Assembly: GCA_038861545.1 (NCBI GenBank)
Contig: JAWCCZ010000007.1
Span: 1 to 38,989 of the forward strand
Direction: 5' to 3'
Length of the DNA stretch: 38,989 nt
Source of the DNA: Thermofilaceae archaeon
Lineage (GTDB): Archaea > Thermoproteota > Thermoprotei > Thermofilales > Thermofilaceae
Part shown: positions 1-10,037 of the stretch, piece after piece
How positions within the stretch are numbered: position 1 is the stretch's first letter
How the letters are laid out: every line of letters starts with the position of its first letter
Notes under the pieces: model-generated
The model's input: only the letters and a program-made list of their open reading frames with translations
What the model was told of the DNA's origin: nothing
Databases searched by the model: none
Translations under genes and position numbers: made by a program

Positions 1-297
1 TTTAACCGCATTCCAAATGGTGTAAAGCCTTCCGGTACTTTTAGAACCCTTACGGACTTCCCTCAGAGCCCAATTCTTCAAAACGCTTAACGCTTCATTA
101 GGAGTTAACTTTACCAGCTCCTCCGGAGATCTGCCACAGCTCTCAACAAAATCCGCCAACATGTCGACATAATCGCAAGCCGTCCTTCCACTCCTCACGG
201 CTACCAGCTCATCAAACCAGTCCTTAACCTCTCCGCAACCCTCATATAATTTAAGAGCCCTCTTTGAAAGTGTATATCTATAACTAAACCTCTCCAA
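1..297 (-). CDS. N-terminal part (runs off window) of a probable tyrosine recombinase/integrase, core-binding SAM-like domain
   Basis: Manually translated open frame from TTG at 297 to base 1 (99 codons): MERFSYRYTLSKRALKLYEGCGEVKDWFDELVAVRSGRTACDYVDMLADFVESCGRSPEELVKLTPNEALSVLKNWALREVRKGSKSTGRLYTIWNAVK. The V..W...L...S..T...Y...L..F....G.SPEEL...AVK pattern resembles N-terminal domains of archaeal integrases. Catalytic RHRY residues lie outside the window. Confidence 0.6.
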   Translation of the reverse strand, partial: MERFSYRYTLSKRALKLYEGCGEVKDWFDELVAVRSGRTACDYVDMLADFVESCGRSPEELVKLTPNEALSVLKNWALREVRKGSKSTGRLYTIWNAVK

Positions 298-327
298 GAT
301 CCATCAAGAAAACAGGAGAGGAAGAGG

Positions 328-335
328 TATATAAA
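328..335. promoter_or_regulatory. TATA box (TATATAAA on +, TTTATATA on -), possibly bidirectional
   Basis: About 31 nt upstream of the integrase TTG on the - strand and 20-27 nt upstream of GGGCCC on the + strand, with a purine-rich BRE-like run before it on +. Confidence 0.5.
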
Positions 336-360
336 TGTTCGGATAGGAAAAATCGGGCCC

Positions 361-710
361 GTAGTCGAGTAAGGATTATAGGCAATCTTCGCGAGTCCTG
401 TAACGGGTGAGTACCGGCACTCTATAATCCCTTTCAATTTAGTTACATTTGACTCGAAGCGAGGTACTTCTTCTCCGCTTAAATTCACCGAAATTATAAG
501 CGATCTCTTTTCTAAATCATAGCCAGCTTCCCTCACAGCCCTACCTACGTCTCGAAGCGTCACTGAAGAAGAGCTGTATTTCACTGTGGCGTAACCCGAG
601 GTTAAATCGGCTTTAATTTCTATGCCGAGTTTTTGCAGTTCCCTTTCTATAGATAGGACGCAGGTAGGGCAGTCGACTCCGATGATCTTTATCTTCTCCT
701 CAATCTTCAT
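361..710 (-). pseudogene. copA: 5' fragment of a heavy-metal (Cu) P1B-type ATPase, CopA-like; only the N-terminal HMA domains remain
   Basis: GVDCPTC metal-binding motif and HMA fold ending in AGY, then a second degenerate HMA-like domain. After YNPYSTT the ORF (201..710) reads into unrelated sequence. The start overlaps the stop of the YHS gene (707-710). Confidence 0.7.
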
Positions 711-895
711 GGCTCAGCAGTACCCACAGGCATACCATTTGGCCCACTGTTCAGGTAGGTTTCAGGATAACGCTCAAACACCTCTCTGCATTGGGCACTG
801 CAGAAGTAGTAGATTTTACCTCTGTATATAGTTTTATGCTTTATTTTCTCTTTATCTATAATCATTCCACAAACGGGATCCATTACTGCAACCAT
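707..895 (-). CDS. YHS/TRASH domain copper chaperone
   Basis: DPVCGM...Y.GK.YYFCS..C...F...P..Y signature; immediately upstream of the copA fragment, as in crenarchaeal cop operons. Confidence 0.85.
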   Translation of the reverse strand: MVAVMDPVCGMIIDKEKIKHKTIYRGKIYYFCSAQCREVFERYPETYLNSGPNGMPVGTAEP

Positions 896-933
896 AGCTA
901 GATGATATTATGACATAGTAATAAACTTATCCT

Positions 934-1395
934 TTAGAGCGTAAGCCTTATGCGCCGGCTACCTTGTGGTGGAATTTCTCTTCTCTCGATCCGTTCGACA
1001 AGATCAACTACTCTATGCTTGATTTCATCGCGTATTTTTCTCGCTTCGTCTAAGCTCATGCCGACAGGGTCTGGAATCCCCCATTGTTCCACGTACTTAG
1101 TATAAAGAATAGGGCATTCCCCGGACTTCGGCTCTCCGCACACAATTATACCAATGTCTGCTACTTTATGCATCTCTGGTACGAGTAGCCTTGGCACCTT
1201 GCCAGAAATATCTATACCTTCCTCAAGCATAAGAAGTACTGCGTTTGGATGTACCTTTTGAGCTGGCCTGCTGCCTGCACTGATTGCGATCCAACCAGCA
1301 GGCGCTATAGAATTGAAATACGCTTCAGCGATCTGACTTCTGAATCTATTTTCTATGCAAACAAAAAGGGCTATTTTTCGTTTTTCGGCATACAT
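934..1395 (-). CDS. arsC: Low-molecular-weight phosphatase family / thioredoxin-type arsenate reductase (ArsC-like)
   Basis: CX5R loop FVCIENRFRSQIAEA, SAG motif, Cys pair in VCGEPKSGECP, W.IPDP motif. Confidence 0.75.
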   Translation of the reverse strand: MYAEKRKIALFVCIENRFRSQIAEAYFNSIAPAGWIAISAGSRPAQKVHPNAVLLMLEEGIDISGKVPRLLVPEMHKVADIGIIVCGEPKSGECPILYTKYVEQWGIPDPVGMSLDEARKIRDEIKHRVVDLVERIERREIPPQGSRRIRLTL

Positions 1396-1562
1396 CGTAA
1401 ATAATTTCTTAAGGTTAAGTTAAAAGCTTTAGTATTCGCTAAAAGTAATTCCAAGAAAGAAGAACGTACAACGGATTCATGTTGCAGTACTACTTTAGCA
1501 TCGATATTGGGTTGTACTGGATTAAGAAAGCTTTAATAGGTTATTCCATAGGTATACAGCGT

Positions 1563-2073: not shown

Positions 2074-2194
2074 TTTTCAATTTTTCCGTATTTATTGAAG
2101 ATTAACATATAAGTTAATTAATTAATACTACAGCTTCAATCATTGTAAAGAAATTATTAAATACTAGATTCTAAGCTTTATAACGGTGACTAAA

Positions 2195-3244
2195 ATGTTA
2201 TCAAAACACCCCCTGGAATTACCTCAGGGCAGAAAATTATCTAGAGAGGAAATAGCCGATGCTCTGCGCTTATCTATAATCGCTGAGCTCGACGCTATAA
2301 GCCTTTATCTTCAACTAGCTAGGACAATTGACGATGAACGGGTAAAAAGGGTTTTCGAGGATATTGCAAAAGAAGAGAAAACTCACACGGGAGAGTTCCT
2401 TGCCCTATTGAAGGGCCTTGACCCCGAGCAGGTTGAGGAATTGGAGTCCGGAGCTCGCGAGGTAATGGAGTTAACAGGGATCCGTGCACAGGATCCCCCT
2501 TCATCCGAAAGTCAAGCTGAACCTTTTACGGGAGAGGAGCTGAGTTATCTGCTGAAACAATTCACAAGCACAGCTGACTCGATTAGAGTTTTCAGACGGT
2601 ATCTTCCTTTAACTAGGGCGGGCAGAGGCACCCTCTCGGTTCCTGTTGAACGTCCAGGCGAGCCCCCCACAGTGTTACCCTTAAGGGAAATCGCGGTTAG
2701 ATTCTATGTAAACCAGAGCTCAATCGATTACGCGAGAGCTACGAAGCAGCCCCTAGAAATAGCCGACGCTCTTAGAGCTGCTGTAGAGCTTGGTTTAAAT
2801 GAAGACCGCACGCTTTTCGAAGCCCTCGCAGGTCTTCGAGAAGCTATAACTGCAACGATCACTAGTTGGGAGAAGCCAGGCGCTGCTGTGGGCGAAGTAG
2901 CTGGAGTTGTAGCTAATTTGATAGGGGCTCAAGCAACACCTCCTTTCATTTTATTTATTAGCCCCACTAGGTTCTCTAGATTACTTCAGGTGCATGAACG
3001 GACAGGGGTTATGGAGTTAACTAGGCTCAAAGCATTAACAGATGTTGTCGCAACACCGGTCTTACCGGACGACACAGCCTTAATCGTATCGGCGACGCCT
3101 AGAGTCCTAGATATAGTGCTTGGCGCTGATACTGAAGTTGAGTATATCGGTCCTGAGAACGGAAAGCACGTGTTCAGGAGTTGGGAGAACATCGGAGTTA
3201 GAGTTAGGTATGAACGTGGGATAGCTTTACTAAAGCAAGCGTAA
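2195..3244 (+). CDS. Family 1 encapsulin shell protein with N-terminally fused ferritin-like protein (Flp/EncFtn)
   Basis: N-terminal ~100 aa carry EncFtn motifs (AELDAISLY...EEKTH.GEF). The C-terminal part has Linocin-M18/HK97-type motifs (EDRTLF, DIVLGAD..VEYIG). ATG at 2195 follows a GGTGA SD; the ORF track starts at GTG 2186. Confidence 0.88.
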   Translation: MLSKHPLELPQGRKLSREEIADALRLSIIAELDAISLYLQLARTIDDERVKRVFEDIAKEEKTHTGEFLALLKGLDPEQVEELESGAREVMELTGIRAQDPPSSESQAEPFTGEELSYLLKQFTSTADSIRVFRRYLPLTRAGRGTLSVPVERPGEPPTVLPLREIAVRFYVNQSSIDYARATKQPLEIADALRAAVELGLNEDRTLFEALAGLREAITATITSWEKPGAAVGEVAGVVANLIGAQATPPFILFISPTRFSRLLQVHERTGVMELTRLKALTDVVATPVLPDDTALIVSATPRVLDIVLGADTEVEYIGPENGKHVFRSWENIGVRVRYERGIALLKQA

Positions 3245-9551: not shown

Positions 9552-10037
9552 ATGGAGCGCGATAAAGTCCTGAAAGTGCTTAGCTGTATGGAGCTTCTGG
9601 AAGAGGCTGCCGCCAGGTTTTACGAATCGTTATCCCGGGTAATACAGGATGAAGAACTAGCCGAGTTGATGAGATTCGTATCCAGGGAAAGCGAAAACCA
9701 CGCCAAGGTTTTAAAAAGCTTTTTCGGCGAACCGCATAGGGACGAGTGCCTAAGTGTACTTGGCTCTAAGGGTTTTAATATTCTTTTGGAACTGGAAGAG
9801 GCTACCAGTAGAATTGAAGGTGGATGGAGGCCGTCGCAGGCCGACCTCGCCGACCTCCTTGAAAAATTAAACAACCTCGAAAAAATGGCTGGAGAGGAAG
9901 TTTACTCCCAGATTATTACAGCTGCTTTTTCGATTGAAGCTTTAGGTCCAGCTAAACTCTTACTTAAAGCTATAGCAGAGGAAGAGAAGCATCATTACGA
10001 GATAGTTCTTTTCGTGTCAAAAACTCTTAGAGAGTAA
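9552..10037 (+). CDS. Ferritin-like/rubrerythrin-like di-iron four-helix protein
   Basis: Two E..AA.FY / E..Y and ExxH pairs (ESENH, EEEKHH); no rubredoxin domain. Confidence 0.75.
   Translation: MERDKVLKVLSCMELLEEAAARFYESLSRVIQDEELAELMRFVSRESENHAKVLKSFFGEPHRDECLSVLGSKGFNILLELEEATSRIEGGWRPSQADLADLLEKLNNLEKMAGEEVYSQIITAAFSIEALGPAKLLLKAIAEEEKHHYEIVLFVSKTLRE

Follow-up and report, generated by a model that had tools for sequence, protein, structure and literature searches.

[quoted passage not shown] 2017, PMC5495485). The dusA-specific integrases (Farrugia et al. 2015, PMC4482086) likewise insert at the 5′ end of a gene, although they belong to bacterial elements and their target is a protein gene.

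The element reported here, found at a broken copA gene of a Thermofilaceae archaeon, is like the pTN3-like elements in that it takes the 5′ half of a tRNA gene as attB and restores the tRNA while separating it from its native promoter. Targeting of this kind is thus already known and the principle is common to both, whereas the architecture is different. The core here is 15 nt (tRNA positions 1–15) against the 41 bp of pTN3. In pTN3 and the SSV-type systems attP is located within the integrase ORF, and integration divides the gene into Int(N) and Int(C), whereas here a whole integrase gene of 430–431 codons adjoins attL in many integrated copies, with the core 58 nt upstream of the start codon. 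In addition, the hosts are Bathyarchaeia rather than Thermococcales, and no SSV-type kinship was detectable (PF16795). An intact integrase adjoining att recalls the non-partitioning pNOB8-type elements (PMC8371274), a likeness of layout; the use of the 5′ end sets the present element apart from these, as the review gives a 3′ preference and names the pTN3-like group alone for the 5′ half (PMC8371274).

The stretch analysed, referred to below as the window, is the entire contig C7 (38,989 nt) of assembly G000 (1.63 Mb in 12 contigs, 92% complete), and the ORF at its left edge is therefore truncated at the contig end (Table 1). To the right of copA lie a YHS/TRASH gene, a low-molecular-weight phosphatase, rubrerythrin and an encapsulin-like gene, in an order that matches the same-genus genome G001 with 75% nucleotide identity, indicating that the right-hand part is host chromosome. 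The top named relatives of the CopA piece are from Thermofilaceae or Thermofilum. We considered and rejected the possibility that this piece is cargo of the element, given that the 38.6 kb to its right are syntenic with the same-genus chromosome. No tRNA was found in the window by ARAGORN, and Rfam gave no match on positions 1–900. As a separate observation, the 352-aa ORF adjoining rubrerythrin (2186–3244, + strand) looks, by eye, like an encapsulin shell protein that has a ferritin-like part at its N-terminus.

Table 1. Coordinates of the features at the left end of the window
Feature	Position	Strand	Basis
Integrase N-terminus, first 99 codons of 431 aa; TTG start at 297, runs off the contig	1–297	−	Match to P0001
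Chimeric ORF, 169 aa: 117 CopA codons + 52 element-read codons to the first stop	201–710	−	ORF list
Element leader: integrase-proximal att arm between integrase start and tRNA-type start	298–354		Near-invariant from TATA to tRNA position 8
TATATAAA, sole TATA box between integrase and tRNA position; proposed bidirectional promoter core	328–335		Position called from sequence
GTTCGGATAGG, arm motif, candidate integrase-binding site	337–347	+	Invariant in alignment; proposed binding role
GGGC, tRNA positions 1–4, element-derived, just left of the crossover block	355–358	+	Empty allele has CTCT
CCGTAGTC, identity block common to element core (tRNA positions 5–12) and copA	359–366	+	Allele comparison
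copA remnant, first 117 of ~794 codons, N-terminal metal-binding region	360–710	−	Homology to P0006
copA-derived D arm/loop mimic, antisense of codons 111–115 (YNPYS), includes GGATTA	367–382	+	17/20 matches, tRNA-Arg(GCG) 5–24
YHS/TRASH metal-binding gene, intact, directly upstream of copA	707–895	−	PF04945, E 5e-16; syntenic with G001

The copA remnant is 71% identical to residues 1–117 of the intact CopA of G001 (P0006, 794 aa) and holds one HMA match (PF00403, residues 7–65, E 9e-12). Homology of the frame that starts at 710 on the minus strand stops at codon 116–117, and past this point the window frame and the G001 protein are unrelated. Of the architecture of a P1B-type copper ATPase (HMA, E1-E2 ATPase and hydrolase domains) the metal-binding N-terminus alone is left, and intact relatives measure 786–812 aa; the window thus holds the remnant of a CopA gene and no working member. 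A tblastn search with CopA residues 118–794 gave no match anywhere in G000, and nothing closer than 63% over these residues was found in a collection of 5.8 billion proteins. We also found no second copper-type PF00122 ATPase in G000, the sole PF00122 match being a different, non-copper-type ATPase on contig C2. Copper export has probably been lost in this host, as the stump appears to derive from the only copper-type P-type ATPase of the assembly.

The ORF at 1–297 gave no Pfam match by itself, and the initial annotation had taken it for the start of an integrase. This assignment is substantiated by its 98–99% identity to residues 1–99 of P0001, a 431-aa protein in which the tyrosine integrase domain PF00589 spans residues 127–296 (44.2 bits against a cut-off of 27.1); the domain falls beyond the contig end, which explains why the piece in the window lacks it. 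The nearest solved structure to P0001 is that of Pyrococcus abyssi XerA (4a8e). Catalytic candidates picked by eye are R155 (in GGLRPED), YSLR ending near 271, GH near 293 and HVY near 301, the XerA alignment covering the first Arg alone among them. The SSV-type profile PF16795 found no match in P0001 at an E value of 0.1 or below. In tblastn searches the integrase gave only one weak match to a plasmid collection, to an archaeal plasmid at 25% identity, and none to phage records, and its family is not described in a paper on Bathyarchaeia viruses.

The habitual site of this integrase was examined at 35 loci with integrase relatives from public genomes and metagenomes, for 25 of which upstream sequence was available; all named hosts are Bathyarchaeia MAGs from hot springs. 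In 23 of the 25 a whole tRNA gene, intron-bearing or not, begins 57–62 nt from the integrase start and is divergent from it; this count includes some near-identical copies from different samples. These data clearly place the family at tRNA 5′ ends, as had been proposed for the element in the window. Arg(GCG) predominates among the adjoining tRNAs, and Lys(UUU), Arg(CCG) and others are also represented. Across 19 aligned loci almost no variation is seen between the TATA box and tRNA position 8, the integrase-side spacer being more variable, and the box starts 27 nt upstream of tRNA +1 in 16 of 17 motif-matched loci. Since the same leader is found beside different tRNAs in different hosts, it is a property of the element. 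Three loci (L020, L026 and L029) had been candidates for truncated tRNAs or an episomal attP, and were rejected when an intron-aware ARAGORN run returned whole intron-bearing tRNA genes. At L021 (around 800–860) the leader ends at AAAAAT and is followed by non-tRNA DNA without GGGCCC, beside a 72-residue integrase relic; this is probably a copy decayed by deletion.

The far ends of such elements could be located in three genomes. L035 carries tRNA positions 1–15 a second time, as a 15-nt direct repeat 3.6 kb downstream on the same contig; the repeat bounds a small element with a frameshifted integrase. Genomes G121 and G124, which hold integrase loci L013 and L012 respectively, each have a 26-nt fragment of a tRNA 5′ end on another contig (L047:1333–1375 and L048:1309–1350). 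The layout is the same in all three: host upstream DNA is followed by tRNA nt 1–15 and then by the element arm, which consists of a D-loop look-alike ending in GGATAGG, a spacer and an inverted GGATAGG copy. attL and attR of these relatives are identical over tRNA positions 1–15, and in the L013/L047 pair, where a single element can be followed at both ends, the two disagree at position 16, which puts the exchange 5′ of that position. In the attP that can be deduced, an 18-nt tRNA start is surrounded by three copies of GGATAGG, two direct and one inverted, and these motifs are candidate integrase-binding sites. We dropped L022 as evidence on the crossover point: its far arm joins non-tRNA DNA, and it is treated as a decayed copy because of a poor core match and an adjoining 39-residue integrase relic.

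The far arm is further conserved for some 100–150 nt past the palindrome (common GGTCTGAATA...TTATTGT; L035:13380–13500, L047:1376–1470 and L048:1350–1440), which suggests that it contains additional arm sites or else a small regulatory gene. The palindrome itself had no match in IMG/VR, nor in 120 genomes of the window's class. A duplicate of the att core at the far end, which the initial annotation had expected, is thus present in the genomes of three relatives and absent from the window assembly, where attL alone is found; no second element arm, leader or core was found in G000.

To characterize the junction in copA, Logan contigs from four hot-spring runs of two studies, two of which runs may be the source sample, were compared with window positions 1–1500. 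Contigs at host depth (12.1, 13.7 and 3.85; lengths 34.9 kb, 29.8 kb and 460 nt) cross the occupied junction in three runs from both studies. Each extends from 337 rightwards and so has 22 nt on the element side, which is below the 31-nt threshold. In the fourth run a 545-nt contig matches 359–654 with one difference and continues into 249 nt of other sequence, of which the last 30 nt on the copA strand keep the frame (TT-EREILDAINV, against TS-EEEILRAITA in G001). This contig is the empty, uninterrupted copA site. Run X6 had no occupied junction listed among its contigs, a result that cannot prove absence. That one difference aside, occupied and empty alleles are identical from 359 rightwards and part between 358 and 359, close to the position near 361 at which the break had been placed from the window sequence. 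The flank of the cognate tRNA and copA diverge at 367, and the two boundaries together confine the exchange to CCGTAGTC (359–366). Overlap regions of tyrosine recombinases are typically of this size, 8 nt. The junction had been annotated as a tRNA start brought in by the element: this is certain for GGGC alone, the remainder falling within the crossover block.

We regard it as very improbable that the junction is a chimera, made during assembly or binning, of a Bathyarchaeia element with Thermofilaceae copA. It is true that the element is otherwise found in another class, and that the contig stops inside a high-copy element whose depth exceeds that of the host 5–20-fold (249, 157, 22 and 50 against 12, 14, 4 and 5 in the four runs). 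However, the partners have only 8 contiguous nt in common, too few for a k=31 graph join, and all 31-mers of a Logan contig must occur in reads; the junction is spanned at host depth in the three runs described above, no empty-site branch is listed in those runs, and a second off-target copy, L010, has the same end point. In these springs the abundant form of the element is flanked by tRNA-Arg, as seen in a short unitig at depth 243 with three tRNA-type differences. The abundant variant differs from the copA-linked copy at 4–5 of 343 nt (window 1–343; for example at 34, 41 and 124), and the copy in the window host therefore belongs to a minor, slightly diverged lineage.

The initial annotation had further described the copA site as a tRNA-mimicking secondary site on the antisense strand, and the scan of the genome upholds this. 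Over the 20 positions 5–24 of the cognate tRNA-Arg(GCG) the site has 17 matches. A scan of both strands of the 1.63-Mb genome, in which copA was first returned to its empty form, gave three or fewer mismatches at only two places, the tRNA-Gly(TCC) gene and the copA site. The latter ties for the best match in the genome and is the best outside tRNA genes; by our own arithmetic, about 0.1 sites with this number of mismatches are expected by chance, and the likeness to a tRNA 5′ end thus goes well beyond chance. The tRNA-Arg(GCG) of G000 itself starts GGGCCCGTGGCC, with 2 mismatches inside the core. Two Val tRNAs of G000 have a perfect 15-nt core with a different D loop and are unoccupied, a point that counts against the preferred reading. 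Four further tRNA genes of this genome, at C3:12079(−), C5:16630(+), C5:19337(+) and C5:107889(−), are identical over their first 45 nt, which reach an apparent intron early in the anticodon stem; ARAGORN calls one of them Arg(gcg) with an intron and gives the others no identity, and the four may be an Arg isoacceptor family with a common 5′ half and intron.

Where the proper site is lacking or altered, tyrosine integrases such as that of phage lambda make use of a partial match to the core and thereby inactivate the gene struck. In contrast with such lambda pseudo-attB sites, the event at copA is a natural one in a host of another class, its occupied and empty alleles are both public, and the exchange is narrowed to 8 nt. 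The second off-target copy, L010 (98% DNA identity), comes from an unrelated host, whose IleRS is only 35% identical to that of G000; it also lies inside a protein gene, and its identity to the tRNA again stops precisely after position 12, beyond which the D loop is matched in part. The gene in question (L010:9733–10014, + strand, junction near 9925–9945) is a Lys/Glu-rich coiled-coil ORF with a weak match to ArlX (E 0.08). Among 120 species genomes of the window's own class, the best other match to the integrase was 33% identical. The simplest reading is that the element was transferred from Bathyarchaeia into a Thermofilaceae cell and then used the pseudo-site.

Neither G000 nor the protein database searched yielded the far junction, the remainder of copA or the other parts of the element. 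Simple insertion is therefore plausible and short of proof, and because the far junction and the remainder were not found we also weighed a rearrangement mediated by the integrase, in which the element first entered elsewhere, for example at a tRNA, and the present junction arose by inversion or deletion with the copA pseudo-site, leaving the remainder of copA beside a tRNA remnant or lost. The pTN3 integrase is reported to invert between non-att sites (PMC5495485), and the perfect-core Val tRNAs would be better primary targets; yet the G000 tRNAs with similar starts all retain their own upstream DNA, the assembly has no other copy of leader or arm, and an empty copA allele exists in the same population, as expected of a recent simple insertion. 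We consider such a secondary origin of the junction improbable, and off-target insertion directly into copA remains the preferred reading.

A TATA box 20–27 nt upstream of the first G, with a run of purines, had been noted on first inspection and was recovered here: TATATAAA occupies −27 to −20 relative to G355 and is preceded on the + strand by purines at 318–327, the + strand then reading GGGCCCGTAGTCGAGTAAGG from 355, with GGGCCCGTAGTC at 355–366. This is the only A/T box in the 57-nt gap between integrase and tRNA. In native tRNA genes of G000 the best TATA-like octamer starts mostly at −32 to −26 (mode −31) and follows a purine- or A-rich stretch. The element box, also preceded by purines, lies at the near edge of this range; as it is about 2 nt closer than the native mode, the predicted start in the tRNA direction coincides with +1 or falls barely inside it. 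Three host MAGs have no copy of tRNA-Arg(GCG) (at least 97% identity) other than the one adjoining the element, and expression of that copy is therefore presumably required. On these grounds the element TATA may supply the promoter of the rebuilt tRNA, and as it is separated by 30 nt from the integrase TTG, the same box could drive transcription both ways. It seems doubtful that the box serves the integrase alone, the rebuilt tRNA being transcribed by read-through or from another element promoter and the spacing reflecting integrase-binding sites. Such a role would suit the 30-nt distance, which fits a short-leader mRNA well, the presence of a GGATAGG arm motif in the same conserved leader and the offset of about 2 nt from the native mode. 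Against it, however, stand the lack of any other A/T box in the gap, the resemblance of the purine-rich stretch on the tRNA strand to native tRNA promoters, the divergent orientation of the integrase, which makes read-through from it impossible, and the sole-copy status of the adjoining tRNA.

Taken as a whole, the locus is best explained, with a probability of roughly 0.85, as an off-target insertion in which an element that normally uses tRNA 5′ ends integrated at a pseudo-attB in copA. Positions 1–358 of the window would represent attL, the integrase-proximal end of an integrative island. The 431-aa integrase would recombine attP, made up of the first 15 nt of a tRNA gene and a D-loop look-alike, with the 5′ ends of tRNA-Arg and tRNA-Lys genes in Bathyarchaeia. 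Integration would sever the tRNA from its own promoter, to be left at the far end with a 15-nt fragment, and would place the leader, with one TATA 27 nt upstream of +1, before the rebuilt tRNA, the integrase gene staying whole and divergent. In the Thermofilaceae host, where the cognate tRNA-Arg(GCG) starts differently, the integrase may for this reason have acted on a pseudo-attB that is antisense to copA codons 111–119, and crossover inside CCGTAGTC would have produced the 117-codon stump. We are also inclined to think, with more reserve, that this is a second archaeal family of 5′-end-tRNA integrases, unrelated to the first and having a 15-nt core and a bidirectional TATA, caught entering Thermofilaceae at the best look-alike, the exact core lacking.

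The cargo beside the integrase varies between copies (L025:1726–11431 compared with L023:1773–7200). One set comprises a DUF499 protein, an SNF2/NOV_C helicase and a protein of the metallo-beta-lactamase fold, and is defence-like in look; the other includes a MacB/FtsX ABC transporter together with a 1162-aa protein without a Pfam match. Given this variety of defence-like and transporter genes, the islands probably serve gene flow among uncultured Bathyarchaeia. The family would constitute a second, independent archaeal solution to the use of tRNA 5′ ends, beside that of the pTN3-like elements, and with an unbroken integrase and a promoter in the att arm it would offer a compact test case for the re-promotion of an essential tRNA and for bidirectional transcription from a single TATA. 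As a natural off-target event of which both alleles are public, the insertion fixes the exchange region to 8 nt without experiment. It also appears to record a mobile element crossing archaeal classes in a hot spring, the consequence for the recipient probably being the loss of its copper pump.
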